Shown here: positions 1,612 through 15,565 of the stretch, piece by piece | Position numbering within the stretch: the stretch's first letter is position 1 | Layout of the letters: the number at the start of each line of letters is the position of its first letter | Assembly (NCBI GenBank): GCA_002418985.1 | Contig: DIFE01000081.1 | Span: forward strand, 1,822-65,821 | DNA length: 64,000 nt | Reading direction: 5' to 3' | From: Deltaproteobacteria bacterium UBA5756 | Lineage (GTDB): Bacteria; Desulfobacterota; Syntrophorhabdia; Syntrophorhabdales; Syntrophorhabdaceae | Made by a program: the position numbers and the translations under genes | The notes under the pieces: model-generated | What the model saw: only the letters and a program-made list of their open reading frames with translations | Told to the model about the DNA's origin: nothing | Databases searched by the model: none

Positions 1612-3449
1612 AAAAAGATGATAAAACATCCCGACAAACCGCCGAACTACGCAGGCGGGCCGAAGAGATCGCCCGGAGAAAGGTGGCCCAGCTGCCGGGA
1701 AACCTGGAGGCCCCGGGACCCGAAGAAACCCAGCAGATGCTCCATGAATTGCAGGTGCATCAGATCGAACTGGAGATGCAGAATGAGGAGTTGCGCCGGG
1801 TGCAGGCGGAACTGGAAGCTTCGCGGGTGCGCTATTTCGACCTCTACGACCGGGCTCCGGTAAGCTATTGCACACTCAGCGAAAAGGGGCTGATACTGGA
1901 GGCGAATCTCACCACCGTGTCCCTGCTGGGTGTCCCCCGGGGCAAGCTGGTCAGGCAGCCGATCACCCGGTTCATCCTTCCTGAGAATCAGGATATCTAC
2001 TATCTTCAACACAGACAGCTTCTGAAAACCGGCGAGGCACAGACGTGCGAATTGAGAATGGCACGAAAGGACGGCACCCAATTCTGGGCCCATATGGATG
2101 CTACCCTGGTGGAGGACGCTGACGGCTTGCCGGTGAGCCGGGTCGTGATCAGCGACATCACCGAACGCAAGCTGGCCGAGGAGGCGCTGGCGAGGGCTCA
2201 TGACGACCTCGAACTACGTGTTCATGAACGCACCGCCGAGCTGGCGCAGGCCTGTAACCAGTTCAGGACAGAGATCGTGGAGCGCGAACAGGCCGAAGAG
2301 CACCTCCGCCGGGTACAGAAAATTGAAGCGCTCGGCACTCTCGCGGGTGGCATAGCGCATGACTTCAACAACCTCCTGGCGGCCATCCTCGGCTTCACCG
2401 AGATGGCCATTGACGATGTTCCCGATAGACCTTCGGTGGAGAAGAACCTCAATATGGTCCTCAAGGCGGCGATGAGGGCCAGAAACCTCGTAAAGCAGAT
2501 CCTTTCCTTCAACCGGAAGAGCGCTCTCGCCAGAAGTCACGTGTCTCTTTCCCCGTTGGTGAAGGAGACAGTGCAGCTCTTGCGGGCTTCCATTCCCTCC
2601 ACGATCGAGATACAGATGGTTATCGGTGCGAGTTCGGATACCGTCCTTGCGACCGCGGATGAGGTGCATCAGATACTGATGAACCTTGCCACCAATGCTT
2701 CTATCGCCATGGAAGAGACTGGCGGGATCATGGAAATCAGCTTCGGCGACGCCGACTTCGTACCCGACTTGCCCATGCTGGCGCCGGATGTTGTGCCTCG
2801 TGAATACGTGGAGCTTGTGGTAAAAGACACAGGGACGGGCATGAGCCCCGAGGTAATGGAAAGAATCTTCGATCCCTTCTTCACCACGAGGGAAGTAGGG
2901 AAAGGCACAGGCATGGGCCTCGCCGTAGTCTACGGGATCGTCAGAAACCTCCAGGGCTTTATCACGGTGGAAAGCAGGCCGGGTATCGGTTCCACCTTTC
3001 GGGTATTGCTTCCCAAGGTAAAAAGTGAAGCGATTGAAGACCCGTTCGAGACCGTGCAGATCGTGGGAGGTACGGAGCACATCCTCTTTGTCGATGACGA
3101 GGAGTTGCTCGTGGATTGGGGCCGGGCTGCCCTTGAGCGTCTCGGCTATACCGTCACCGTCCTGACGGACCCCACGGAGGCCCTGAAAACCTTCTCTGCC
3201 GACCCCTCCCGCTTCCACCTCGTCATCACCGATCAGACCATGCCGAAGCTCACGGGCATAGGCCTTGCCAGGAAGATTCTTGCACTAAGGCCCGACATCC
3301 CCGTCATCCTCTGCACGGGGCACAGCGTCACCGTGTCACCCGAGAAGGTAAAGGAGGCAGGAATCAAAAAATTTCTCATGAAACCCGTGAGGAGGCAGGA
3401 ACTGGCAAGAGGGATCAGAATGGTGCTTGACTCAGGGGAGGAGCAATAA
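1608..3449 (+). CDS. PAS-domain hybrid sensor histidine kinase / response regulator
   Basis: N-terminal coiled coil plus PAS; H-box GGIAHDFNNLL; ATPase G-boxes KDTGTGM and GKGTGMGLAVVYGIV; C-terminal receiver (ILFVDDEE ... VITDQTMPKLTG). Confidence 0.85.
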   Translation: MKKDDKTSRQTAELRRRAEEIARRKVAQLPGNLEAPGPEETQQMLHELQVHQIELEMQNEELRRVQAELEASRVRYFDLYDRAPVSYCTLSEKGLILEANLTTVSLLGVPRGKLVRQPITRFILPENQDIYYLQHRQLLKTGEAQTCELRMARKDGTQFWAHMDATLVEDADGLPVSRVVISDITERKLAEEALARAHDDLELRVHERTAELAQACNQFRTEIVEREQAEEHLRRVQKIEALGTLAGGIAHDFNNLLAAILGFTEMAIDDVPDRPSVEKNLNMVLKAAMRARNLVKQILSFNRKSALARSHVSLSPLVKETVQLLRASIPSTIEIQMVIGASSDTVLATADEVHQILMNLATNASIAMEETGGIMEISFGDADFVPDLPMLAPDVVPREYVELVVKDTGTGMSPEVMERIFDPFFTTREVGKGTGMGLAVVYGIVRNLQGFITVESRPGIGSTFRVLLPKVKSEAIEDPFETVQIVGGTEHILFVDDEELLVDWGRAALERLGYTVTVLTDPTEALKTFSADPSRFHLVITDQTMPKLTGIGLARKILALRPDIPVILCTGHSVTVSPEKVKEAGIKKFLMKPVRRQELARGIRMVLDSGEEQ

Positions 3450-3674
3450 TCGCTGAAATCGACGGACAAGGTAGTTACAGCAATATAAATCCTTGCACCA
3501 TGTTTCGATTGGTAATCCGTCTGTGCCTGTTTCTAAGCAGCTATTTAGTAGTAGGTGCCATACGTAACATCTTCATGCTTCCCCTTATTCACGCCGCAAC
3601 CTTGAGATAAATTAAGATGACTTGATCAGGAATGAGTCGCCCAGCGCAAGAAATGTTTTGCCTCGCCCCAAATA

Positions 3675-3803
3675 CCTAAAATCAAACCCCTCTTGAAAAC
3701 ACCCCCAAAACTCCCTTAATTTTACCAACCGTAAGATTAGTCAGAAGTGACTTATAACATTATTCGGTACTTAGTTATCACACCCCCCTACACAATCTTG
3801 TAG
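3675..3803. repeat. Direct repeat copy A (left island boundary)
   Basis: cctaaaatcaaacccctcttgaaaacacccccaaaactcccttaattttaccaaccgtaagattagtcagaagtgacttataacattattcggtacttagttatcacacccccctacacaatcttgtag. It matches 13530-13657 apart from 2 substitutions, a 1-nt C-run indel and 1 terminal substitution. Confidence 0.9.
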
Positions 3804-3905
3804 CCGCGTGTTATAACTCAGGGGCAAGAAATGTTATAAGTCGGTCCTTGGAATCGCTTGATAGTGTCAAAAAAGGTTTGATTTCTCCAGCAGTACATAA
3901 GACGC

Positions 3906-6371
3906 TCAAGTCTTAAGATTGATAGTTGTTGTGCCACAATTGCAGCATAACACTTCCGGCTGACCTTTGCGTGGCAAGACATACAGATAAGACCTACAGG
4001 TCAGATTCGCACAGCGCATGTGCTCAAGAAGATCTTTGTATGCGTTGACCACTTCTTGAAATTCCTTCGTCTGTAGGTTTGCCCATTCATTAAAGTGAAC
4101 TGATGGGTTAATGGCCCACTGTTCCACATACGTCTTAGCAACCAGGTCCTTAGCCGTGGCCCGCATTGCTGCAAGCATAGTCTTGACTTCCCGAAGGTTC
4201 CATTTCGTGGCGGAGTCCTCACCATCCTCGAGTAATTTTCGCCACCGATTTAACGCTTGAGGCAGGAGGTCGGCGAGATCATGGTGACCGTCGCCCCTGA
4301 ATTCAATTCTAGCACGAAGATTATCGGCAAGGATGAAGGCTACGTATTCGAGGTAGCGGCGCAGCAGCCAAGCTGCTCGGGCCACATCGTCCTTGGCAAG
4401 TTCACCCTCGATTTCGGTCCAGATGTCCTGATCGTCCCAAACGCGCGGGCCGAAGTCGATGGTCCAACCACTGAATGACCGGCTCCTAGAAATCAGGTTT
4501 TCTGTCTTCATGTATTGGAGCCACACGCGGTCATGAGTTGTAAGAATGAATTGTGTATTAGGGAACTCTTTCTTGAGAAACCGGCAAACCTCCCGGCGGT
4601 GCCCGGTGTCAACTGACATGAGTACATCGTCTAGGACAGCGAAGGTGAATTTCTCTCCAAGCGTGTGTTTCATGAGAGCTAAATAAAGGCACAGCCCCAT
4701 GGCGTCCTGATGGCCTTCGCTGTGATAGGCGCCAGGTGGAAAGAGTCCGCGGCCATAGAAATCCACATCAAAACTGAGTTTGGCCGGTTCCGAGATAAGT
4801 CTGCCGTGAAACTTGTCCTCATCCTCATGATTGATCGTACCATAATACTTTACGAAGTCCTGCGCGACCTGATCGTAGATGCCTTCGAGAGTTGCCATAG
4901 CGGAAGTGTTGTAGTGGCTCACAACCTTCTGCGCGACATCACTCCGGGTCTTTTCCACCTCAGCCGTTTGTATTGCCCCCAGTAACCGCTCATAGCGATC
5001 CTGGGCGACGATCAGAGCATCGCGAGCCGCATCCTCGGCAGAGGTGTCAGGCAAAGCTTTCACAGCGGCTTGGCACCCGTCAACCTCCCTCTTCTGCTCC
5101 GCCCCTAGCGACCACCACGAGTTGGTTACGGCTTTGAGGGCTGGACTGACTTGGCTGTGATCTTCGAGGAATTCCTTGAGTGCCTTTTCTGCCTCCCTTA
5201 GTTTGTTGAGGTAAATACCAGTTTCAACGTGTGGTAAGACCGGTTGGAAGCTTTCACTATACTCGACAACCCGCTCCATCGCCCGAATGCGCCCCACCAA
5301 GGTTCCAAGTACGGTGTTAATGCTGCTTCGGAGCTGGTTGAGTAGTTTCTCGATATTCTCCGCGCTAAGGATCTTCTTGCGCAGGTGTTCGCGCAGTTCA
5401 TCTGCGTTCCACGGTCTATCGCAAAGTGGACAGGAGTCTTGTGTGACAAAGTCGAGGCCGGTCTTAACGAATTGGTACTGACGAGCTAGTGTCAACGCTT
5501 GCTCGTCCTCTTTGAGCTTTTCGAGGGCGCCTTTCACATCATTACGGCTGTCAACGAGTGTGGAGGGCTCCGTACCTTGAAGTGCAGTCTGCAAGGCTTC
5601 GAGATCGACCAGAGCCGAGGCCTTGCTCAGGACCGATTTCTGTTTTTGATCCTTGACTTCGGGTAAACCAGCTTTAAAAGACGTGTTCTTGGTCAGTTTT
5701 GTCAGAACGGGTAAGGAAAGAAGCTTGCGCTTCTCGTTCACTTTTGCCAAAACAAGTGCGTGCTCCAGCTTATCAACCTTCAGGACGGTTCTTAGCTCGG
5801 TCGCTGCCGTGATGCGATTTCGTTCTGCTTCATCCGCCTTGCTCTTTTGCTTGTTGTTAAATGTCGTGAAAGTCTTCCTCAGGCGTCCGATATGGTCGAG
5901 GCGAAGCAGCGTTTGAACATCGGTAGAGCGCTGACCAGGGGGTGTGATGATGTACTTGACAATCTCTCGGCGGGAGAGTGCAAACTCGGGATGGGTTTCC
6001 AACTCAGCGATAATATGTCTAACGGCTCCATCATCGGGCGTCACCGTGACGGTGCCGGGGTTCTTCACCGAGCGGTGAATAGTGATGGTCTTATTTAGCG
6101 AAGGAATATTGCAGGTCATGGTGACATTGGCGTCTTCCGGATGGGTACGTTGATCCACGTGTGGTGCGTGTAGTTTGACGCTCAGTCCTGCCGTGCCCTG
6201 CCCAGACAAGCGGGTTATGTCACCTGTAAGGCAGAATTCAATGGCGTCGACAACACCACTCTTGCCGGTACCGTTGGGACCACATATCCCAAAATTCTTG
6301 CCACCCAAGTCCAAGTCAAGGGTCCGAATACCACGGAACTCTGCGATGTGGAGGGTCTTAATGCGGATCAC
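3906..6371 (-). CDS. SMC/Rad50-like ABC ATPase with a coiled-coil zinc hook and a C-terminal Cys4 domain (RloC/AAA_13-like architecture); candidate defence protein
   Basis: GTG start overlaps the stop of the upstream 72-aa ORF (GTGA). Walker A GPNGTGKSG (aa 31-38); helical insert of roughly aa 165-520 with central CPLC (aa 314-317, nt 5421-5432); signature-like SEGHQ (551-555); Walker B FAVLDD (577-582); TTHD (611-614); ~200-aa C-terminal domain ending CANLTC...CCNCG. Confidence 0.7.
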   Translation of the reverse strand: MIRIKTLHIAEFRGIRTLDLDLGGKNFGICGPNGTGKSGVVDAIEFCLTGDITRLSGQGTAGLSVKLHAPHVDQRTHPEDANVTMTCNIPSLNKTITIHRSVKNPGTVTVTPDDGAVRHIIAELETHPEFALSRREIVKYIITPPGQRSTDVQTLLRLDHIGRLRKTFTTFNNKQKSKADEAERNRITAATELRTVLKVDKLEHALVLAKVNEKRKLLSLPVLTKLTKNTSFKAGLPEVKDQKQKSVLSKASALVDLEALQTALQGTEPSTLVDSRNDVKGALEKLKEDEQALTLARQYQFVKTGLDFVTQDSCPLCDRPWNADELREHLRKKILSAENIEKLLNQLRSSINTVLGTLVGRIRAMERVVEYSESFQPVLPHVETGIYLNKLREAEKALKEFLEDHSQVSPALKAVTNSWWSLGAEQKREVDGCQAAVKALPDTSAEDAARDALIVAQDRYERLLGAIQTAEVEKTRSDVAQKVVSHYNTSAMATLEGIYDQVAQDFVKYYGTINHEDEDKFHGRLISEPAKLSFDVDFYGRGLFPPGAYHSEGHQDAMGLCLYLALMKHTLGEKFTFAVLDDVLMSVDTGHRREVCRFLKKEFPNTQFILTTHDRVWLQYMKTENLISRSRSFSGWTIDFGPRVWDDQDIWTEIEGELAKDDVARAAWLLRRYLEYVAFILADNLRARIEFRGDGHHDLADLLPQALNRWRKLLEDGEDSATKWNLREVKTMLAAMRATAKDLVAKTYVEQWAINPSVHFNEWANLQTKEFQEVVNAYKDLLEHMRCANLTCRSYLYVLPRKGQPEVLCCNCGTTTINLKT

Positions 6372-6586
6372 TTTTGATCCTCCGGCGTCGATTCGAATAG
6401 CATTGCGATTACCTGCTCTGGCGTCTTCGGTATAAAACCTTTGCTCAGGAAACTGTATAGTCTGTCTATCCCATCATCTGAAATCGCAGGATCAGCTCGC
6501 ATCGCGGCAACAAACTGCTCCAGTACCTGAAGAACGGTCGGCGACATAACTACGTTACTGTTTTCCTCGGCCTTATCCTTAGCCAT
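6368..6586 (-). CDS. Small acidic hypothetical protein translationally coupled to the ATPase
   Basis: 72 aa with no recognisable motif. Its stop overlaps the ATPase GTG start, and its own ATG is overlapped by an upstream 46-aa ORF. Confidence 0.45.
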   Translation of the reverse strand: MAKDKAEENSNVVMSPTVLQVLEQFVAAMRADPAISDDGIDRLYSFLSKGFIPKTPEQVIAMLFESTPEDQK

Positions 6587-6719
6587 GTCTATTCCGTATG
6601 CCTGCGACGTAGTTTAGAATAGTTGGGTGGATCGGTATAGAGATTCTTTGTGCCTGTTGTTCTTCGACTCTTAACCCATAAACCCGTTGTTTCAACTTGC
6701 CGGAGCTGTTATCCTTCAT
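6579..6719 (-). CDS. Possible 46-aa leader ORF (below the ORF-track cutoff)
   Basis: Hand translation gives MKDNSSGKLKQRVYGLRVEEQQAQRISIPIHPTILNYVAGIRNRHG. RBS GGAG lies 7 nt upstream of the ATG at 6719. The stop TAA overlaps the start of the 72-aa ORF (ATGGCTAA). Confidence 0.2.
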   Translation of the reverse strand: MKDNSSGKLKQRVYGLRVEEQQAQRISIPIHPTILNYVAGIRNRHG

Positions 6720-6811
6720 CTGCTTGCTCCAAGTTTCATGATGGCGTTACTTTTATCGATTATTGCTTACTAATAGCATACATATTATTAACAATTACTC
6801 AAGAAAAGCTT

Positions 6812-6838
6812 TTATAGGATATTGGAATTACCCTATAA
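6812..6838 (-). terminator. Hairpin immediately after the Dam-like ORF stop (weak intrinsic terminator candidate)
   Basis: On the minus strand: TTATAGG-13 nt-CCTATAA followed by AAGCTTTTCTT. The stem is AT-rich, so stability is doubtful. Confidence 0.3.
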
Positions 6839-7519
6839 TTATGGGACATAGTTCCCAACCAACAATTCTGTCACCTTCTTTTGTTTGTTGGCCCCTGGCA
6901 TCTTATAGCTCGTCGTGACCTCCTCGATAGAATAATCTTTGAACAGTTCCCGGATCTCCCGGACGTCATTAATGGACACGATAAACCTCCCCTGAATCCC
7001 CGCCAGTACATCCCGAAGCCTCGCGAAGTCCTCTCGATTGAATATCCCCTCACCATAATCATTTTCATTCCCATAATAGGGTGGATCGATATAGAAAAAG
7101 GTCTCCGGCCGGTCAAACCGTTCGATAAGCTTTTGATAATGCATGTTCTCGATGTAGACCCGGGACAGGCGGAGATGAGCCTCAGAAAGTTCCTCTTCGA
7201 TCCTTAATAGATTTAATGATGACGGCCGAGTCGGGCCAATATTGAAAGTCTGCCCCACCACTTTGGCCCCGTATCCGGCCCTCAGAAGGTAGTAGAAACG
7301 CACCGCCCGCTGGATATCGGTGAGGGTATCCGGATTCTCGGCCTTAAACCGGGAGAATTCCTCCCTGGCAACGAGAATCCACTTGAGATAGCGGATAAAT
7401 TCCTCAAGATGGTGCTGGATAACCCGGTACAGCGTTACCAGGTCCTTGTTGATATCGTTAATGATCTCGACCTTTGATTCTTCCTTCTTGAACAACAGCC
7501 ATGCAGCCCCTGCAAACAC
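6839..7519 (-). CDS. D12-class N6-adenine DNA methyltransferase (Dam-like), catalytic portion; N-terminal segment missing from this frame
   Basis: DPPY motif (FYIDPPYYG). FxGxG-like FAGAAW sits at the very N-terminus, followed by NDINKDL. The N-terminal W-x-G-x-K segment that normally precedes motif I is absent from this frame (see finding). Confidence 0.75.
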   Translation of the reverse strand: MFAGAAWLLFKKEESKVEIINDINKDLVTLYRVIQHHLEEFIRYLKWILVAREEFSRFKAENPDTLTDIQRAVRFYYLLRAGYGAKVVGQTFNIGPTRPSSLNLLRIEEELSEAHLRLSRVYIENMHYQKLIERFDRPETFFYIDPPYYGNENDYGEGIFNREDFARLRDVLAGIQGRFIVSINDVREIRELFKDYSIEEVTTSYKMPGANKQKKVTELLVGNYVP

Positions 7520-7520
7520 C

Positions 7521-7874
7521 TCACAGTAGCAGGTATGTTTCGTAGTCGGCGCAGACCTGACAGAATGCGGCCACGATATCGATGGACATTCCCCATCGTT
7601 TGTTGCCGTTATGGTCTATGATGTCGCCCGCCAGATCACGGCTTTCCGCTGACCAATTGTCGAGGGTGCTTTTGGGAACCTCGATACCGGTCAGCTTGTA
7701 GATCCCCGAACAGATGTCGACCCTGTCCATGCCGGATTTCTTGATTGCTGTCGAGACGGCCTGGCGGACCCTGGCGCTGACGTTCAGGCTGCCGGGAGCA
7801 GGAGGTCTTTCCGGTTTCAGGTACTCGAAGAGTCCTCCCTGTCGACTGTCAATTTTCTGTTTAACTTTTGACAT
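7521..7874 (-). CDS. Hypothetical protein; probable N-terminal fragment of the frameshifted Dam-like methyltransferase
   Basis: RBS GAGG lies 6 nt upstream of the ATG. The C-terminus NGNKRWG-x19-ETYLLL resembles the SAM-binding N-terminal segment of Dam enzymes. The stop is 1 nt from the Dam-frame GTG. Confidence 0.45.
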   Translation of the reverse strand: MSKVKQKIDSRQGGLFEYLKPERPPAPGSLNVSARVRQAVSTAIKKSGMDRVDICSGIYKLTGIEVPKSTLDNWSAESRDLAGDIIDHNGNKRWGMSIDIVAAFCQVCADYETYLLL

Positions 7875-8027
7875 TGCAAACCTCGGTGCTGTTTGTTAGA
7901 ATCAAACCAGATTTGAAAATATGACGGGGGGAGTGGCTCTTGAGGAAAAAGGAAGAAGGGATACCTGATGAGGTTTTTGCCTTCGCCTTGCCGGTCAAAG
8001 AGAAGATGCGCAAGCTCATGGAACTCC

Positions 8028-8387
8028 TCATTCCTCTTCCCTGTTTTGAATACAGCATGAAAACCGGAGATTGTTCGGAATTTGAGTGTCCAACCGGAGA
8101 CGGTGAAGAGTCTCTTTGCAGAACCAGGAGACTCCTCGCTGAGCAACTGGCAGCCGCGATACAAATAAACAGATACGATCCGCTGCATCCCGAATATAAA
8201 AGGCTATCTCAGAAGGAGAAAACCCTGCTTCTGAAAGTTCACGAACTAAACGGCGGATATGTTCCTCCTCCTCACCTGATTCCACGAAGGGAAAAGGGGT
8301 AGAGGCGCATATGGCGGCCATACAGAGCATGCGATCTCGCAACATTAATGATCGCTCAGTCTGCATTGTTACTGGGTTGCATTTCAT
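8028..8387 (-). CDS. Hypothetical protein
   Basis: The ATG lies 9 nt after the stop of the upstream HTH gene, with RBS AGGAGAG. No motif recognised. It competes with plus-strand ORF 7940-8302. Confidence 0.4.
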   Translation of the reverse strand: MKCNPVTMQTERSLMLRDRMLCMAAICASTPFPFVESGEEEEHIRRLVRELSEAGFSPSEIAFYIRDAADRICLFVSRLPVAQRGVSWFCKETLHRLRLDTQIPNNLRFSCCIQNREEE

Positions 8388-8396
8388 GAGTCTCTC

Positions 8397-8618
8397 CTAT
8401 GCGGCCCGTTTTGGTTTTTCGTCCGGCCATAGATCTGACACCTGGACACCCAGGGAATCTGCGATCGCCTGGCGGATGTGCGGTGATACCTGTCTGCCGA
8501 TCATTACGTGGTACACGTTCTGGCGGGTACAGCCAATCTTGCGGGCTATTTCTGCGCCCGTTACATCTTTGTCAATCATAAGTTTCTGGATCTTCTTTTT
8601 GGTCTGGGTTGTTGCCAT
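8397..8618 (-). CDS. Small HTH DNA-binding protein (Ner/Cro-like)
   Basis: 73 aa with HTH VTGAEIARKIGCTRQNVYHVMIG. It is divergent from the CI-like repressor across a 61-bp spacer. Confidence 0.6.
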   Translation of the reverse strand: MATTQTKKKIQKLMIDKDVTGAEIARKIGCTRQNVYHVMIGRQVSPHIRQAIADSLGVQVSDLWPDEKPKRAA

Positions 8619-8679
8619 GGTTAGATTATTATATGCACGATGATGTGTTGTAAAGGAAAAATATGCAGCATAGTGCGTA

Positions 8680-9363
8680 ATGAAGAACGAACATAGCGAT
8701 ATAGGGCAGAGGTTGAAGATGTTGAGGGGTTCTCTATCTCAAACTGAGATGGGAAAACTCTTTAATATGCCATTACGTACATATCAGTCATATGAGTATG
8801 GGCAGCGGGTACCTCCCTCGCATGCTCTATCAAGTATTGCAAGAAAGTTCGGAACCACTGTTGAATGGATATTAACCGGTGTGGACGAGCGAGCGGACGA
8901 AGAAACAGGTAAAGGCGTACTGAAGAAAGAACCTTCTCCAGGAGAGAAGCTGGGGCAGGATTTCGCATATATTCCCCAGGTGAATGGAAGAATCAGCGCA
9001 GGAAAAGGTTTAGCTCCTGATAATGTTATCGAAATGAGGGTCGCCTTTCGAAAAGAATGGATTGCGCGAAAGGGTAACGCAAAAGACATGGTTCTTATTA
9101 AGGTATCCGGTGATAGCATGGATCCGACCCTTTTGAATGGCGATCTTGTTCTCATCGATCGTGGCAGAAAATATTTTGAACCGCAGGGCGGTATTTACGC
9201 CATTGCAGTGGACGATACGATAATGATAAAGCGAGTCCAGGTTGTTGGGGATCGTGCAAAGATTATCAGTGACAATAAAATGTATGAGCCTTTTGAGGTT
9301 AGTGCCGATCAGGTAAAGATAAACGGCAAAGTCATCTGGTTCGCCAGGGAATTGGAGAGGTAG
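8680..9363 (+). CDS. LexA/CI-type repressor (XRE HTH + S24 peptidase)
   Basis: HTH SQTEMGKLFNMPLRTYQSYEYGQR; Ala-Gly cleavage candidate ISAGKG; S24 Ser VSGDSMDPTL and Lys IMIKRV. Confidence 0.8.
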   Translation: MKNEHSDIGQRLKMLRGSLSQTEMGKLFNMPLRTYQSYEYGQRVPPSHALSSIARKFGTTVEWILTGVDERADEETGKGVLKKEPSPGEKLGQDFAYIPQVNGRISAGKGLAPDNVIEMRVAFRKEWIARKGNAKDMVLIKVSGDSMDPTLLNGDLVLIDRGRKYFEPQGGIYAIAVDDTIMIKRVQVVGDRAKIISDNKMYEPFEVSADQVKINGKVIWFARELER

Positions 9364-9485
9364 AAAATGGGTTCGTTGTTGACTCGCTGCGGATCAGTCC
9401 GCAATCTATTACAGTTAGTTTGAACAGGTATCGATATCTTCTGTTGGCTCTGTAAAGGCAGGATTCATCCGATTGAGCGGGTTTT

Positions 9486-10280
9486 ATGAATAATTCTGAT
9501 TTTTTCAGCATCTGCTACGCACATCAAGAGCCACAAGTTTCGTGGTGTGGCGTTATTGTAAAGGACGGGGAAGACTTCGATCTTTTCATGAGAAATGAGG
9601 TTGCTTCCCGCCTCCACGATGCGAGCGGCGCGAGAGAATTTGAGGACTGTCTGCGTAGTCTTGTCGCGACAGGCTTTAATCGAGACAATCTGGAAGACAT
9701 TCTTGCTGCTGAGATTCCCGAAGATCGGGACTGGGCCGTCGGTGAAGCTATAGCGGAAGCTTATTTGAGCGAAAAGCATGGTATTATTTGGCCCTGGAAC
9801 ACAGAACGGGATAAGCGAACACCCCGAGCCAGTCTTCCGGGTGCCGATCTAATTGGTTTCGATGTCAGAAGAGAAGGTATTCGATTTGCCTTGGGCGAAG
9901 TAAAAACTTCGAGCGATAAAGATGTTCCGCCCAACGTCATGAACGGACGGACCGGTATGATACATCAGCTGGAAAACCTAGCCGACAATCTAGGGTTAAT
10001 CAACCAATTGCTCAAGTGGCTGTTCTTTCGATGCAGAGCCACAGATCACGAAAAATCCTTCAAAGCGGCCAGCACTCTCTTTCTTAGTTCTGGCAAGAAG
10101 GCCGTCGCCTTATTTGGCGTGTTAGTTCGTGATACAGCGCCCGACGAACTAGACTTAAGAAACCGAGGAAACGCATTTGCCAAGAAACTCAAAGATCCCA
10201 CTGAGTGTCAGTTGGTAGCAGTGTACTTACCATGCGCAGTTGCGGATCTTCCCGCACGCGTCTCGGGAGGCACAGTGTGA
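9486..10280 (+). CDS. hamA: PD-(D/E)xK nuclease-fold protein, HamA-like (Hachiman)
   Basis: 264 aa. D121 (PGADLIGFD) ... E138-V-K140 (FALGEVKTS) fits a PD-ExK motif. It lies immediately upstream of, and is start/stop-coupled to, a large SF2 helicase. Confidence 0.5.
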   Translation: MNNSDFFSICYAHQEPQVSWCGVIVKDGEDFDLFMRNEVASRLHDASGAREFEDCLRSLVATGFNRDNLEDILAAEIPEDRDWAVGEAIAEAYLSEKHGIIWPWNTERDKRTPRASLPGADLIGFDVRREGIRFALGEVKTSSDKDVPPNVMNGRTGMIHQLENLADNLGLINQLLKWLFFRCRATDHEKSFKAASTLFLSSGKKAVALFGVLVRDTAPDELDLRNRGNAFAKKLKDPTECQLVAVYLPCAVADLPARVSGGTV

Positions 10281-13200
10281 GTCATTGGTTACTGGACAGC
10301 CTTGCCGAAACAGTACAGTTGGCGCTAAAACAGGCAGATGGCGTGGAGATCCAACGTGCGTTGATGGGCTCCCCTTCCGGCAATGACGTGGGTCTTATCG
10401 AAAGAACTGTTGAAGCGTTGGAATTAGCAGTGTTTGACCTTGTTGCTGAAGGCACGCCACGCGAAGAAAACGCTAGAAATGAGCTTAGAAGGATTGCTGC
10501 CGATGCTTTCCGGTTGATTCGTGTATTGCCCAGACGAGATGATCCGATTGAATGCGCAAGACTCTTGTTACGGGGTGGCGCACTCGCTGTGCTCGGGGAC
10601 AAGGGGTCGGACGCGGCACGATGGCTACGCGAAGATGAATGGCCCGATTTGCCGCTGGAATCGAGCGATTGGAGTGAACGTACCTGGGCAACAATCATCG
10701 ATATTTGGTTGCGATTAATTCGCAAGCATGGTTGGTCCGACCGCGACAAAGTGCTGAAGTGTATCTCTACACTACGTGATTCTCAGGTTGTGTTCGAAAG
10801 AGATTATCTTGCTGGTAGAGAGCACATACATGCCAAATCCGCAGCTCTCGAACTTGTCGGTCTCTATCATCTTGCTAAGGCGGCAGAAATACTTGCTTAT
10901 TACATAACCGATGGTGTGGTGGATGGGAAGTATCAAATTCATCAACTCCTAGAACAGCACTTTGACCGAGTGTTTGCCGTTTGTGAGTACGCCCAAATGT
11001 ATGAGTTAGAACCTTTAGCCCGACTTCTTTCGGCCTGTTCGTCTCAAATGGCAGACAATTCCATCTGGACGGTTACTCGCGCTGTCAACTCAAGGGTAAC
11101 AAGGTTTGTCGAGACGCTCGTTGCCCAAGGCCGAGGCGATCGAGCAATTTTTGATGTCTTGCCTCCACAGCGCCGCTCGTTGGCAGAAAAGGGTTTGCTC
11201 GGTTCAAGTCGGAGGGCGGTCGTAGTGAGTCTTCCTACATCTAGCGGCAAAACATTGATTGCGCAGTTTCGTATTCTTCAAGCCTTGAACCAGTTCGAGC
11301 TGGAGCGCGGCTGGGTAGCTTATCTTGTTCCGACCCGAGTGTTAGTTAACCAGATAACGCGCCAGTTGCGCCGTGATTTTGAGCCGCTATCGGTTGTTGT
11401 TGAAAAGGTCAGTCCGGCTTTGGAGGTCGACAATATAGAGTCTGAATTGTTGCGTCAAGAAGATCAGACACGGGCCTTTCGAGTGCTTGTTACTACTCCC
11501 GAAAAGCTGGATCTGATGTTACGACAAGGTCTGGAGGCAACAATCGGTCGCCCTTTGACATTGGTCGTTGTGGACGAGGCTCACAACATTCAGGGTGTTC
11601 AACGAGGGCTTAAGCTTGAACTATTGTTGGCAACCATCAACAACGAGTGTCAAAGAGCACAGTTCCTGTTATTAACACCTTTCATCAGGAATTCGGAAGA
11701 AGTCGCCCGGTGGCTTGGAGGTCAGAGTTCCGATGACATAAACCTGGCTCTAGACTGGCAACCCAACGATCGCATTGTTGGAATCGTGCAGGCCGAAAAA
11801 GGTGACGCTTTGGACGGGAGAAGTTTCGATTATCAGCTTTGTTTAGAGACAGTGCATACTACCAGAAATACTCTGACAATCGACAATTCTCTGTTCCTAC
11901 CGAAGAATCCTGATATTGCATCAACTTTTAGTAAAGCGTCGAATGCTAGCAGCTTGGCGGCTATTACCGCCCAGCGTTTGCACGAAAGAGGGCCGGTAAT
12001 TGTAATGCACGCCCGACCTGATTGGGTGTGGGCTCTGGCTAAGAAGTTCATGATTCCAGAGAACAAGAGGGAACTCTCTACCGAAAAAGTCAAGTTGGTT
12101 CAACAATTTCTTGACCTCGAATATGGTGTTAGTTTCCAGTTGCAAGACTTGCTTTCATACGGTGTTGGAATCCATCATGCTGGTCTGTCAGATGATGTTC
12201 GCCTTCTAATGGAATGGTTGTTCGAAGAGAACGAACTAGATTTTCTGGTGGCAACCACAACCATTGCCCAAGGGGTAAATTTTCCAGTTACCGCCGTAGT
12301 CATGGCTTCACATCAGTATCCTATTGACAAGAAAATGACGGATATGTCACCCGAAGATTTTTGGAACATCGCGGGTCGGGCCGGAAGAATAGGTCAAGGT
12401 AGCGTTGGAATTGTAACGCTGGTTGCTGACAATGATAGTAAGGCTTCGATTCTTCGTAATTTTATTAATCACCAGAGCGGCGAACTGAATTCCGCTCTTG
12501 TTACTCTGGCTAGAGAAGCCGGAGAGATGCTCGAAAACCTTGGAGCAATCGTTTACAGACATCCGGAATGGTCCGCTTTTCTTCAATACCTAGCGCATAC
12601 ATATCGCCAGATGGGCAAACCCGAGGCGTTTGTGAATGAAATCGAGCAGGTCCTTCGTGGAACGTTCGGATACGAGAAACTTCGTAGCCAAGACTCTTCT
12701 TTGGCAAGGAAACTGCTTGATGGAATTCTAGTTTATGCTCGCTATCTCGGCGAACCTGGACAGCCCCTTAAACTTGTTGACAGCACTGGTTTCTCACTTC
12801 AAAGTATAAGGACCGTCCTCGGCGCCGCAAGTGTTGAGGGAATTCATGGCGACGCATGGAATTCTCAATCCCTATTCAACGAAAACAACCGCGATCTTCA
12901 AAAAATGATGGGCGTTTTGCTCAATGTTCCCGAATTGCGGGAGAACTTGAAGGCTGTGACGGGCGGCAGGTCCCCCGATGGGAATAAGCTTGCGTCAATC
13001 GTGAAAGACTGGGTAAATGGGGTTTCAGTTCCAGAGATAACCAAGCGCCATTTCTTCAAGGAGGGCGACGACTTTACGTTGGCCATGACAACATGCGGAC
13101 GAAACATCTTCGGCAGGCTGACTCAGACTGCCGCATGGGGCCTTGGGGCTTTGCTTTCAATTACTGGCAGCGGTTTGTCTGAAGAGCAGTTGTTGTCGCT

Positions 13201-13450
13201 GAGCAATCTGCCATCGCAAGTTTACTACGGCGTTAACAACGATTCCGCCGTTGCCTTGAGACTGCTAGGCGTACCAAGAACTGCCGCGACATCCCTGGCA
13301 AGTTTTATGGGCGATGTTCTCACTGAACCGCTAGCCAGTATCCGTGGACAGTTGCGCGACATGCCTGCCGCAAGTTGGCAACAAGCGCTTGGACAACACC
13401 ACGGAGAGGTTTACCAAAGAGTATGGAAGGTTCTAGAAGGATTAGACTAA
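10277..13450 (+). CDS. hamB: Ski2/Hel308-like SF2 DEAH helicase, HamB-like (Hachiman)
   Basis: Motif I LPTSSGKT, motif II VVDEAHNI, motif V ATTTIAQGVNFP, motif VI AGRAGRIGQG. The preferred start is the GTG at 10277 overlapping the upstream TGA; the ATG at 10232 is an alternative. The helicase core is flanked by N- and C-terminal regions of about 320 and 355 aa. Confidence 0.7.
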   Translation: MSHWLLDSLAETVQLALKQADGVEIQRALMGSPSGNDVGLIERTVEALELAVFDLVAEGTPREENARNELRRIAADAFRLIRVLPRRDDPIECARLLLRGGALAVLGDKGSDAARWLREDEWPDLPLESSDWSERTWATIIDIWLRLIRKHGWSDRDKVLKCISTLRDSQVVFERDYLAGREHIHAKSAALELVGLYHLAKAAEILAYYITDGVVDGKYQIHQLLEQHFDRVFAVCEYAQMYELEPLARLLSACSSQMADNSIWTVTRAVNSRVTRFVETLVAQGRGDRAIFDVLPPQRRSLAEKGLLGSSRRAVVVSLPTSSGKTLIAQFRILQALNQFELERGWVAYLVPTRVLVNQITRQLRRDFEPLSVVVEKVSPALEVDNIESELLRQEDQTRAFRVLVTTPEKLDLMLRQGLEATIGRPLTLVVVDEAHNIQGVQRGLKLELLLATINNECQRAQFLLLTPFIRNSEEVARWLGGQSSDDINLALDWQPNDRIVGIVQAEKGDALDGRSFDYQLCLETVHTTRNTLTIDNSLFLPKNPDIASTFSKASNASSLAAITAQRLHERGPVIVMHARPDWVWALAKKFMIPENKRELSTEKVKLVQQFLDLEYGVSFQLQDLLSYGVGIHHAGLSDDVRLLMEWLFEENELDFLVATTTIAQGVNFPVTAVVMASHQYPIDKKMTDMSPEDFWNIAGRAGRIGQGSVGIVTLVADNDSKASILRNFINHQSGELNSALVTLAREAGEMLENLGAIVYRHPEWSAFLQYLAHTYRQMGKPEAFVNEIEQVLRGTFGYEKLRSQDSSLARKLLDGILVYARYLGEPGQPLKLVDSTGFSLQSIRTVLGAASVEGIHGDAWNSQSLFNENNRDLQKMMGVLLNVPELRENLKAVTGGRSPDGNKLASIVKDWVNGVSVPEITKRHFFKEGDDFTLAMTTCGRNIFGRLTQTAAWGLGALLSITGSGLSEEQLLSLSNLPSQVYYGVNNDSAVALRLLGVPRTAATSLASFMGDVLTEPLASIRGQLRDMPAASWQQALGQHHGEVYQRVWKVLEGLD

Positions 13451-13529
13451 CAACAAAAGTAACCCTCGAACATAGAGACTTGTCAGATCGGCAACATACG
13501 ACAGCAGAAATACTTTTTCGCTTAATCCC

Positions 13530-13657
13530 CCTAAAATCAAACCTCCCTTGAAAACACCCCCAAAACTCCCTTAATTTTACCAACCGTAAGATTAGTCAGA
13601 AGTGACTTATAACATTATTCGGTACTTAGTTATCACACCCCCTACACAATCTTTTAG
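13530..13657. repeat. Direct repeat copy B (right island boundary)
   Basis: See copy A. Weaker similarity extends about 30 nt upstream in both copies (gcaagaaatgtttt versus gcagaaatacttttt). Confidence 0.9.
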
Positions 13658-13661
13658 TCAA

Positions 13662-13690
13662 TTGACACTTTTAGTGTGAAAGTGATATAA
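13662..13690 (+). promoter_or_regulatory. Sigma70-like promoter candidate for the TMEM175-like gene
   Basis: TTGACA (13662-13667), 17-nt spacer, ATATAA (13685-13690). It begins a few nt after repeat copy B ends. Confidence 0.35.
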
Positions 13691-13701
13691 GCGTTAACAT
13701 A

Positions 13702-14346
13702 ATGGCAAAAACCGAATCTTCCGGCGGCCGGTTTGTTATGACGACTCACCGCATAGAAAGTCTGTCAGACTGCATTTTCGCCTTTTCGATGACTCTTCTC
13801 GTCATGAATTTTTCTTTCCCGACCGTCGGGACTGACAAAAGCGAGGCGCAGGTTACAGAAGTGTTCCTGAGGGAGATAGCGAAGTTTGACCGCTACGTCC
13901 TTACCTTCGTCCTTCTGGCCATTTTCTGGATTACACATCATCAGCAATTCCACCATATCAGGAGAACGGACCGCGGCTTTCTCTGGATCCAGGTGGCCAC
14001 CCTTATGTTTATCGTGATGGTCCCCTTCACCGCGGCATGGATGTCGGCTTACAGCCACCTCCATATTACCAATCTCGTCTTTGATATCAATCTATTTATT
14101 CTCGGACTTCTCTTCCTCGTAGCCTGGATCTACGCAACGCATGGAGGAAGACTTGTTGATGAAGGCATTGACGGCCGTTCTGTCTGGCGGGGCACGGCAA
14201 GGTCCCTTCTTACATGTGCTGTCGCGCTGATCGCCATCGCGGTTTCCTTCTATCATCCCGGCTGGAGCAACTATGCGTTTATCCTGACGCCGGTGGTTCT
14301 CCTGCTTAAGCCTTTTCGACAGTCAGAAAGACCGGGCGGCCGCTGA
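13702..14346 (+). CDS. TMEM175/DUF1211-family membrane protein (putative K+ channel)
   Basis: N-terminal RIESLSDCIFAFSMTLLV motif typical of DUF1211, and about 6 hydrophobic segments. The true start may be the ATG at 13738. Confidence 0.7.
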   Translation: MAKTESSGGRFVMTTHRIESLSDCIFAFSMTLLVMNFSFPTVGTDKSEAQVTEVFLREIAKFDRYVLTFVLLAIFWITHHQQFHHIRRTDRGFLWIQVATLMFIVMVPFTAAWMSAYSHLHITNLVFDINLFILGLLFLVAWIYATHGGRLVDEGIDGRSVWRGTARSLLTCAVALIAIAVSFYHPGWSNYAFILTPVVLLLKPFRQSERPGGR

Positions 14347-14395
14347 TCGTTCCGGCGGAACCTTTCTTATTTTCGATAGGTATACGATGGCCATC

Positions 14396-15565
14396 TCAGT
14401 CCGCGTTACTCGCTCGGCCGGCGCCCATGGAATGGCTCAATCCTGCCCCAATGGCCTCGGAAGCGATACGGTAGCTCCTCATGAGGAACACAAGGGCCGG
14501 AATACCGAGCACCGCCGGGACCAATACGGTTGCGATGAACAATCGAAAGACAAACCCGTACATCTCGCCCGCCACCTGGAAGACGCTTGCATCACTCAGT
14601 TTGTCGATATTACTGAAAAGGTAGCCCTCTACCATCTTCAACGCGATCCCGCTCCCCATGCACAGGTTGTAGGCCATGACGAGAACATTGAGGACATTGA
14701 CCGCGACGATCGGAGTCAGCGCAATGGCGAATGCCTTGACGATATTTTGAAAGAACACCTCTTTGCGGGAATCAAAGGCCATGGTTATGACAGAGAAGGG
14801 GAAGGTGACGCAAAATACGGCCGCCCTGACGGCGGCAGCGACAATGACACCGGTGAAGGTGAATATCAGCAGCGTATGAAAGAGAAAACCGGCGATGGTC
14901 CCGATATGACTGCGCACCAGTTCGCGGACAGTCTCCAGGACAAATATCATGCTGCCGGCGTCTACGTTCACCCCGATACCACTGGAGATAACGGCCATGT
15001 ATTCCGATACGACATAGCTGATCATCATCATGAACGCGCCCAGGGCAGGATGGAAAAGGGCAAGACAGGCCGAGGGAGGGATGAGGGGCAAAAGAAAGAT
15101 AAGTTGGGCAAGCCGCACCTTGATCGCGTCGACCCATTTTATCTTCACGCCGGCAAGCGGCGACGTCTCCTTGATATCCGTCAGTTTTTCGGAAAGTTCC
15201 TGCGACCCCATTTCCCTTCCCAGTTTGGCCTTGACGGCATCGAGGTTTGCAAAGATCCTACCGTCCCCGACCTGTGTGAACCCGGCGGATATGACCATCC
15301 GTGGAAACGTCCCGATGAACGTACCGGCTTTGCCGTCCGCTCCACCCAGAAAGGGCAGCGGCGTGCACAGGGCGCAGATGATCATGAACCTGCTCGCCTG
15401 CTCCTTGACATAGGGCAGGATGTTCTCGTATCCCTTCTTGTAAAGCGTGAAGACTATCCGGGAGCTTCCCATGAAGAAGGCAAGGGCGGTGACGATGGCG
15501 GCCACCTGTTGCTCCACCTGCGCGACGAGTTGAGAGGATTGCGCCAGAAGGTCCGTCGGGTTCAT
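14396..15565 (-). CDS. Polytopic inner-membrane protein of unknown function (TrbL/VirB6-like topology possible)
   Basis: 389 aa with many hydrophobic spans. It is co-directional with, and 121 bp downstream of, the 886-aa surface-protein gene. No diagnostic motif. Confidence 0.5.
   Translation of the reverse strand: MNPTDLLAQSSQLVAQVEQQVAAIVTALAFFMGSSRIVFTLYKKGYENILPYVKEQASRFMIICALCTPLPFLGGADGKAGTFIGTFPRMVISAGFTQVGDGRIFANLDAVKAKLGREMGSQELSEKLTDIKETSPLAGVKIKWVDAIKVRLAQLIFLLPLIPPSACLALFHPALGAFMMMISYVVSEYMAVISSGIGVNVDAGSMIFVLETVRELVRSHIGTIAGFLFHTLLIFTFTGVIVAAAVRAAVFCVTFPFSVITMAFDSRKEVFFQNIVKAFAIALTPIVAVNVLNVLVMAYNLCMGSGIALKMVEGYLFSNIDKLSDASVFQVAGEMYGFVFRLFIATVLVPAVLGIPALVFLMRSYRIASEAIGAGLSHSMGAGRASNAD

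Follow-up and report, generated by a model that had tools for sequence, protein, structure and literature searches.

In transposable phages of the Mu/D3112 group, the repressor gene lies beside the left end of the genome and is transcribed toward that end. A small helix-turn-helix (HTH) regulator is transcribed in the opposite direction and is followed by genes for a DDE transposase and its AAA+ partner. The termini are of the TG...CA type with repeated internal sites, insertion produces a short target duplication, and a DNA modification gene is found near the right end. The Mu repressor is of the phage's own c type. Laboratory mini-Mu elements retain both ends and the immunity region but lack the middle, and their movement needs transposase in trans. 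In the Pseudomonas Mu-like phages (D3112 group) the repressor and Ner sequences vary by immunity group, and end repeats have been described (PMC4378225). P2-like phages and P4-like satellites are described as having defence hotspots (Rousset et al. 2022, as cited in PMC12135933), and Mu-like prophages of Escherichia coli have been noted as carriers of defence systems (PMC9519451). The locus considered here lies in a stretch of 64,000 nucleotides from Deltaproteobacteria bacterium UBA5756 of the Syntrophorhabdaceae (contig DIFE01000081.1), which is called the window; all coordinates refer to it unless another contig is named. Positions 3799-13646 very probably constitute an internally deleted Mu-like transposable prophage, a natural 'mini-Mu', whose pair of divergent regulatory genes is the immunity switch of the phage, the counterpart of Mu c/ner.

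The mini element still has its two phage ends and a 6-bp target duplication, as well as the genes for the repressor and Ner and two early genes. It shares the Mu/D3112 features listed above, with the transposase and its partner present in its intact relatives. It differs from Mu in that the repressor is of the XRE-HTH/S24 self-cleaving type, the duplication is 6 bp rather than 5 bp long, and one kilobase-sized cargo slot separates the repressor gene from the left end and another the Dam gene from the right end. In addition, the window copy has lost A, B and all of the late genes. Unlike laboratory mini-Mu, the element is natural and carries defence cargo, and its mobility is hypothetical. An earlier note on this DNA had offered two readings of the regulatory pair: an immunity module co-opted to place defence genes under RecA/SOS control, or the remnant of a satellite or prophage. 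The second, its fallback, is the one that stands, in the form of a c/ner-type immunity region of an internally deleted Mu-like prophage.

The element is 9,848 bp long, starts with TGTAG at 3799, finishes with CTACA at 13646 and has the hexamer CAATCT on both sides. The right end is an imperfect inverted repeat of the left end and holds repeated TGTTATAA motifs, which are likely to be transposase-binding sites. The island thus has the terminal TG...CA ends with repeated internal sites that mark Mu-like elements. A 128-bp direct repeat in this region is the left end of the phage. Every copy of it stops at CCCCCCTACA, beyond which the flanks diverge, and a blastn comparison with the rest of the genome matched it once, on contig C22. 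One copy in the window (copy A) is a solo relic; it and the right end of the mini element lie tail to tail, 6 bp apart. The 128-bp repeats had been considered as att sites of an integrative element. This is ruled out by the ends themselves, by the inverted orientation of the right end at 3799 and by the target duplication of 6 bp. An integrative island targeted to a tRNA or small RNA gene was set aside as well, since an Rfam search of 3000-14500 gave nothing credible and the window contains no tRNA genes. The hallmarks of phage satellites of the phage-inducible chromosomal island or P4-like kind, namely their own integrase or primase and helper-hijacking genes, are absent from the open reading frames (ORFs) of the island.

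The genome contains a full-length relative of the element. When 3001-14500 was compared with its own genome by blastn, 7539-8629 matched contig C22 at 92% and 8958-9362, which encodes the S24 domain, matched it at 85%; there was no DNA match for 8630-8957, which holds the operators and the HTH domain. On C22, the genes of a Ner protein (96% identical) and of the 119-residue early protein (94%) are followed by those of a 164-residue phrog_2345 protein, a small IclR-type HTH protein and a 311-residue protein. Then come a 573-residue DDE transposase (phrog_310, 2.9e-58) and a 413-residue AAA_22 MuB-like 'DNA transposition protein' (phrog_296, 4e-47). This gene set is a Mu-type early region. The assembly has exactly one MuA-like gene. 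The paired right end of the full prophage is on contig C31, where it directly follows genes for baseplate-hub, wedge and tail-fibre proteins; another homologue of the right end is on contig C64. When the host flanks of C31 and C22 are joined, they correspond to an uninterrupted sequence in the related genome G011 (95% identity over 994 bp) with a single TTTTCT. This is proof that the full prophage inserted there and duplicated 6 bp. Two further complete copies are contained in single contigs, one of 41,443 bp in genome G005, flanked by AGGGTG, and one of 38,099 bp in genome G009, flanked by AGATGG. The short target duplications are therefore found at varied sites, CAATCT here and three other hexamers in the three full relatives.

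The order repressor, Ner, MuA, MuB is conserved in genomes G005, G079 and G075, in the IMG/VR locus L023, which has the immunity type of the window and 88% DNA identity to it, and in the metagenome locus L111. The intact relatives read: left end, variable cargo, repressor, divergent Ner, early genes, MuA-like gene, MuB-like gene, late genes, Dam, variable cargo, right end. The transposase and its MuB-like partner, present after ner at the homologous position on C22 and in these five loci, are absent from the island, which therefore is not an autonomous member of the family. Tailed-phage late genes are also absent from the island. The observation in the earlier note that phage structural, replication and lysis genes are lacking is correct for the interior of the island, but phage ends, a target duplication and early genes are present there.

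The missing part was removed in one event. DNA homology to C22 ends at 7539 (blastn), and the joint was placed by a three-way sequence comparison. The ORF of 117 codons at this point consists of the first 112 of the 164 codons of the early gene and continues as TYLLL-stop. The full-length Dam of a relative starts MRSFLSYRGGKSLL..IPEHTCYCEVFAGAAW, that is, MRSFLSYRGGKSLLANKIVKKIPEHTCYCEVFAGAAW. In the window the early gene, ending in GCCGACTACGAA, switches to Dam at ACATACCTGC, with a microhomology of about 3 nt (GAA). One deletion took out what followed in the early region, together with the transposition genes, every late gene and the first ~26 codons of Dam; judged from relatives of 38-41 kb, the lost segment would be about 28-32 kb. 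A one-base frameshift in Dam, the other candidate considered, is ruled out, for the 117-codon ORF is part of the early gene joined to a Dam truncated at its 5' end. The earlier note had the Cro-like gene leading through the 119-residue ORF and a split Dam to the ATPase. Dam is not split: the 117-codon ORF is not its N terminus. In related prophages Dam is 31-37 kb away from the repressor gene or the left end. Its homologues occur in 43 IMG/VR contigs, many of them 36-40 kb long with Dam at the very end as the last conserved gene. That the Cro-like gene is now linked to Dam and the ATPase is a chance result of the deletion.

A contig that joins pieces of different Mu-like prophages might give the same picture, because the metagenome-assembled genome (MAG) is in 166 contigs, has several related prophage ends and shows 3.7% contamination. 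Such a chimera is highly improbable. The partners at the deletion joint share only about 3 nt, which is too little for a k-mer mis-join, copies A and B of the left end differ at four positions, copy A has its own upstream sequence, and the perfect 6-bp duplication fits a real insertion.

The repressor and the 73-residue HTH protein are encoded by divergent genes with a 61-bp spacer, exactly as first described. The repressor matches Peptidase_S24 (PF00717, 5.8e-23), HTH_3 over residues 17-64 (27.2 bits, cut-off 23) and phrog_4 'transcriptional repressor' (2e-48). In an alignment with E. coli LexA, its ISA107-G108KG sequence falls on the Ala84-Gly85 site, Ser146 of GDSM on Ser119, and Lys184 of IKRV on Lys156. 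The XRE HTH and the LexA-type residues listed in the earlier note are thereby supported. An Ala-Gly site, a Ser-Lys dyad and an N-terminal HTH domain are likewise found in LexA, lambda CI and UmuD of the S24 peptidases; the protein would be of the self-cleaving type, with candidate RecA*-stimulated autocleavage at A107-G108. It scores 49 bits against the LexA equivalog model, under the cut-off of 111, and is a phage repressor rather than the host LexA. Its nearest relative is encoded on a contig of genome G001 from the same genus. The 73-residue protein has a Cro/CI-type HTH (HTH_26) and a borderline match to the Ner-type HTH_35 (25.3 vs 25 bits); its nearest relative of solved structure is the 434 repressor. 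The DNA from 7800 to 9500 has no match in E. coli genomes, phage records or plasmids.

Two divergent promoters are predicted in the spacer. Pe, on the minus strand, has a -35 hexamer TTTACA (8654-8649) and a -10 hexamer AATAAT (8630-8625), with the ner ATG 6 nt beyond; the promoter scan called it independently as TTTACA-18-AATAAT. Pc, on the plus strand, has TTGTAA (8648-8653) and CATAGT (8669-8674), with the repressor ATG 5 nt beyond. Two candidate operator boxes ATATGCA, at 8631-8637 and 8661-8667, have the same orientation and a start-to-start distance of 30 bp. Each is located within the spacer of one promoter, immediately upstream of the -10 hexamer. The boxes had been noticed earlier, but their positions had been given as 8633-8639 and 8662-8668 and their spacing as 29 bp. 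The 64-kb window contains four copies of ATATGCA on both strands and two of these are in the 61-bp spacer, so that the pair is not due to chance.

Seven related spacers, that of the window included, were compared. All contain TTGTCAAG, which reads TTGTCA on the plus strand, the -35 of Pc, and TTGACA on the minus strand, the -35 of Pe. In all seven a direct pair of boxes flanks this element and the sequence of the box tracks the immunity type. It is ATATGCA twice in the window, L023 and L019, ATYCACA twice in C22 and G005, TGCAGATGAACGACAT in G079 and TTACACC in G075. The operator boxes appear to co-vary with the immunity type, that is, with the HTH domain of the repressor, around a conserved element of back-to-back -35 hexamers. 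The ATG of the repressor gene is 5-7 nt past a -10-like hexamer in both sequence-unrelated immunity types, and that of ner is 6 nt past (C/A)ATAAT, distances that fit leaderless starts on both sides. The repressor ATG is not preceded by a Shine-Dalgarno sequence, as had been pointed out together with the nearby CATAGT. The leaderless start proposed on that basis gains comparative support from the related spacers, and both genes look leaderless. Because the Ner proteins of the window element and the resident full prophage are 96% identical, whereas the repressor HTH domains and the boxes differ, the two are predicted to be heteroimmune.

The switch might operate as follows. The repressor would bind the two ATATGCA boxes, one in the spacer of Pe and the other in that of its own promoter Pc, silencing the Ner arm and regulating its own synthesis. 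Both mRNAs would begin at or beside their AUG. RecA-stimulated self-cleavage at A107-G108 would open Pe, and Ner would then damp both promoters via the conserved GGTTAGATTAT/TTGTCAAG segment. PDC-M23, the gene pair in the left-end slot, would occupy the position of cargo expressed in the lysogen, like lambda rexAB behind cI, and is probably transcribed with the repressor gene or just behind it. It would be on in the repressed state and not induced by the SOS response. The ATPase cassette would be exposed to possible read-through from Pe solely as a result of the deletion. The surviving repressor would confer immunity against phages of its own immunity type, which is unlike that of the resident full prophage.

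The genes behind the repressor gene had been called a HamA/HamB-like pair. The two genes are indeed adjacent and the second product matches HamB models (8e-65), but PADLOC assigns the pair to PDC-M23. The Hachiman system requires a HamA (DUF1837) nuclease beside the HamB helicase, and PDC-M23A has no HamA or Pfam match. With matches to both models, the pair would be a PADLOC candidate defence system with a Hachiman-like organization. No relatives of PDC-M23A were found in IMG/VR. Related elements share homology with the window copy up to 3 bp past the repressor stop codon and then again from the left end. In other elements this slot is filled by different genes, as is the slot between Dam and the right end (Table 1). 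The interval from the repressor gene to PDC-M23A has no predicted sigma-70-like promoter or terminator, which makes co-transcription in the repressed, lysogen-like state plausible. The arrangement resembles lambda cI-rexA-rexB, in which exclusion genes directly follow the lysogeny repressor gene in the same orientation and a leaderless repressor mRNA, as predicted here, starts from a promoter in a short divergent switch region. However, the cargo is unrelated, two direct boxes take the place of the three dyad operators of lambda, the phage is transposable and not lambdoid, and co-transcription of the cI-rexAB kind is only predicted. The defence hotspots of P2 and P4 are similar in being fixed slots in a conserved prophage backbone with different systems in each relative, and differ in that here the phage family is transposable, its hosts are Syntrophorhabdaceae and the slots are at both ends of the genome.

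Table 1. Features of the mini element and its surroundings, with the cargo of corresponding slots in related elements (C, G and L are working labels of contigs, genomes and loci)
Feature	Position	Strand	Evidence or content
Relic solo left end ('copy A'), ends ...CCCCCCTACA	3675-3792	+	97% identical to 13530-13646; 96% to left end of C22 full prophage
Target-site duplication CAATCT, left copy	3793-3798	.	Identical hexamer after left end at 13647-13652
Right end, TGTAGCCGCGTGTTATAAC...TGTTATAAGTC	3799-3905	+	79%/74% identical to C31/C64 right ends
Right-end cargo: 72-aa gene (6368-6586) and Rad50/LmuB-like zinc-hook ATPase (3906-6371)	3906-6586	-	Pfam SMC_N/AAA_23; PADLOC LmuB 2e-28
Dam-like D12 methyltransferase remnant	6839-7519	-	Lacks first ~26 codons, start codon and YRGGK motif; Pfam match from profile position 28
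Truncated early gene (phrog_2345 'transcriptional regulator'), 117-aa ORF	7521-7874	-	PHROG 3.8e-23; 90% identical to C22 164-aa protein
Internal deletion joint	7536-7539	.	Codon ~112 of the early gene runs out of frame into codon ~26 of Dam
Conserved phage early gene, 119 aa, no family	8028-8387	-	Copies on C22 and IMG/VR contigs 94-95% identical, located between ner and transposase genes
Ner/Cro-like HTH protein, 73 aa	8397-8618	-	Pfam HTH_26 and HTH_35; 96% identical to C22 copy
Switch region	8619-8679	.	Promoter scan, box count, comparison of seven related spacers
c-type repressor, 227 aa	8680-9363	+	XRE HTH (17-64) and S24 autopeptidase domain; A107-G108, S146, K184
Left-end cargo slot: PDC-M23A (9486-10280) and PDC-M23B (10277-13450)	9364-13529	+	PADLOC 6.1e-100 and 0, full lengths
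Left end, ends ...GTTATCACACCCCCTACA	13530-13646	+	94% identical to C22 left end; 91-96% to left ends of relatives
Target-site duplication CAATCT, right copy	13647-13652	.	Perfect copy of 3793-3798
Repressor-to-left-end slot, C22 full prophage			Hypoth_Ymh, DndB/DpdB-like protein, D12 methylase, pair of a cyclic-oligonucleotide-based anti-phage signalling system (CBASS; Cap15 2TM effector and cyclase)
Repressor-to-left-end slot, G005			Ser/Thr kinase-ORC/CDC6-like protein, CARF-like protein, DruA
Repressor-to-left-end slot, G075			Methylase and specificity subunit, PDC-M63 A/B
Repressor-to-left-end slot, elements of window immunity type			L109, L110: methylase and five ORFs; L111: 585-aa protein
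Dam-to-right-end slot			Window: 72-aa gene and zinc-hook ATPase; G005: AbiU/AIPR; C64: PDC-S35 (TIR); G009: none

The composition of the slots bears on the proposal that the regulatory pair was kept by selection to put both flanking defence operons under RecA/SOS control, to be turned on upon DNA damage or phage attack. The repressor has intact cleavage and catalytic positions, the retained genes are all intact, the two arms run in the same direction as the regulators, and no terminator is predicted after the repressor gene. Nevertheless, this is improbable. In the intact relatives the same pair precedes the MuA/MuB-like genes and controls transposition, so that the layout was inherited, and cargo behind the repressor is the usual arrangement. 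Because both slots of these relatives often hold defence systems, which vary between elements, a repressor beside defence genes is ancestral phage architecture and not co-option. The cargo behind the repressor is different in every relative, and the linkage of the left arm arose through the same deletion that destroyed Dam. Genes that follow the repressor would, on the model of lambda cI-rexAB, be expressed in the repressed state rather than induced by the SOS response. In two other genomes the PDC-M23 pair is not preceded by such a repressor; the idea that the repressor is an integral third component of PDC-M23 was also ruled out, with two informative loci only. The earlier note had said in advance that co-option would be refuted if relatives carried the pair in an intact prophage. 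C22, other Syntrophorhabdaceae, IMG/VR and metagenome contigs all have it ahead of MuA/MuB-like genes, which makes the locus an ordinary prophage fragment.

The reading as a deleted Mu-like prophage leaves room for the element to be mobile. The resident full prophage (C22/C31) could move and package it in trans, and PDC-M23 would spread together with the ATPase cassette. In favour of this, the element has two intact ends and an intact target duplication. Identity with the full prophage is 94% at the left end and 79% at the right end, and the TGTAG terminus and the TGTTATAA repeats are conserved. The single MuA-like gene in the assembly means that a helper exists, and the operator region, which in Mu is the transposition enhancer, has been retained. 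Yet the genome has a single copy, and the right ends have diverged to a fair degree. A search of the metagenome contig collection did not recover the exact deletion joint, and none of the relatives shares this deletion. A helper-dependent defence island is therefore considered unlikely. An equally small chance is given to a satellite-like vehicle within a phage family that inserts at a specific target (target-site duplication + 5 nt + TCA(A)TTGAC), so that tandem insertions and relic ends accumulate.

Several points weigh against the identification of the element as a deleted Mu-like prophage with a working c/ner-type switch. Transcription, DNA binding and cleavage are all predicted from sequence. 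The window has A at 8652 in the TTGTCAAG element, where the six relatives have C, and this may weaken the -35 hexamers of both divergent promoters at once. Since homology ends 3 bp past the repressor stop codon, the cargo may bring its own promoter, independent of Pc. The target duplication is 1 bp longer than that of Mu. A relic left end abutting a right end is unusual and its explanation is tentative. The transposase encoded on C22 has no Pfam match, and its matches in the Protein Data Bank are to retroviral integrase cores only. The phage identity of the island rests on homology and on its ends, because neither a transposase nor a structural gene is inside it.

Ends of these phages repeatedly abut an inverted end or an end-like sequence at a distance of 6-8 bp. 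At 3675-3803 of the window the order is relic left end, CAATCT, right end, and in metagenome contig L110 (5629-5680) it is left end, GCTTCG, right-end-like sequence. The right ends on C31 (8194-8225) and C64 (2070-2120) are beside degenerate, end-like host sequence that the empty sites of G011 and G018 contain as well. The abutting ends fit repeated insertion into an identical 6-bp target followed by decay of the older copy. To the left of the relic end, a dispersed repeat of about 60 bp (3580-3648) is 84% identical to sequences on contigs C34 (two copies on opposite strands) and C57. Three independent insertions have a target pattern in common. Read outward from the left end, the target is CAATCT TTTAG TCAATTGAC in the window (13647-13670), TTTTCT TTGCT TCATTGAC on C22 (13683-13705) and CCATCT TTTCC TCATTGAC on contig C30 of G009 (~1570-1594), while the insertion in G005 has GATTGAC on the right-end side instead. 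These cases, only four in number, suggest that insertion is sequence-specific and targeted just upstream of TTGACA-type -35 boxes, which would be unusual for Mu-like phages. A regular-expression search for the end motif recovered none in IMG/VR elements that are more distantly related.

At the insertion site of the full prophage, G018 (L018, contig C44, 100697-107703) has only the last ~90 bp of the left end with a TTTTCT flank. About 7 kb of unrelated genes, including ORFs of 1172 and 995 residues, replace the remainder; this is another decayed copy in the same target. In G011 and G018 (L005, L006) a small monooxygenase-like gene, and not the histidine kinase gene, is found upstream of the TMEM175-like gene (cf. 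window 13660-13700). In the source genome the monooxygenase-like gene is on C64 beside another prophage right end. This placement suggests either that a rearrangement associated with the prophage has taken place or that the MAG mixes strains. On C31 (6835-7813), fragments of insertion sequence-type transposase ORFs and a 377-residue gene without a family lie between the tail genes of the full prophage and its right end.

The finding corrects the annotation of the region: what looked like a 'defence island without a recombinase' of 10 kb is phage DNA bounded by transposon ends. The identity of the Mu-like phage explains at once where the island begins and ends, why it has direct repeats, why Dam seemed 'split' and why the regulator pair is there. 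New here are the host lineage, the 6-bp duplication, the slots at both ends, a natural mini-Mu beside a possible helper and the compact switch; the mini-Mu itself leaves current concepts unchanged. The Syntrophorhabdaceae, which are anaerobic syntrophs, join the known hosts of such phages. At either end of the phage genome is an exchangeable defence slot; these slots hold CBASS, DruA, AbiU, PDC-M23, PDC-M63 and PDC-S35 and are useful for mining new systems. The switch, with its back-to-back -35 elements, one box per promoter, apparently leaderless genes and boxes co-varying with the repressor HTH domain, offers a testable model of heteroimmunity. If the element were mobilized by the helper, the mini-Mu would be a satellite-like vehicle for PDC-M23 and the zinc-hook ATPase cassette, residing together with a heteroimmune full prophage.

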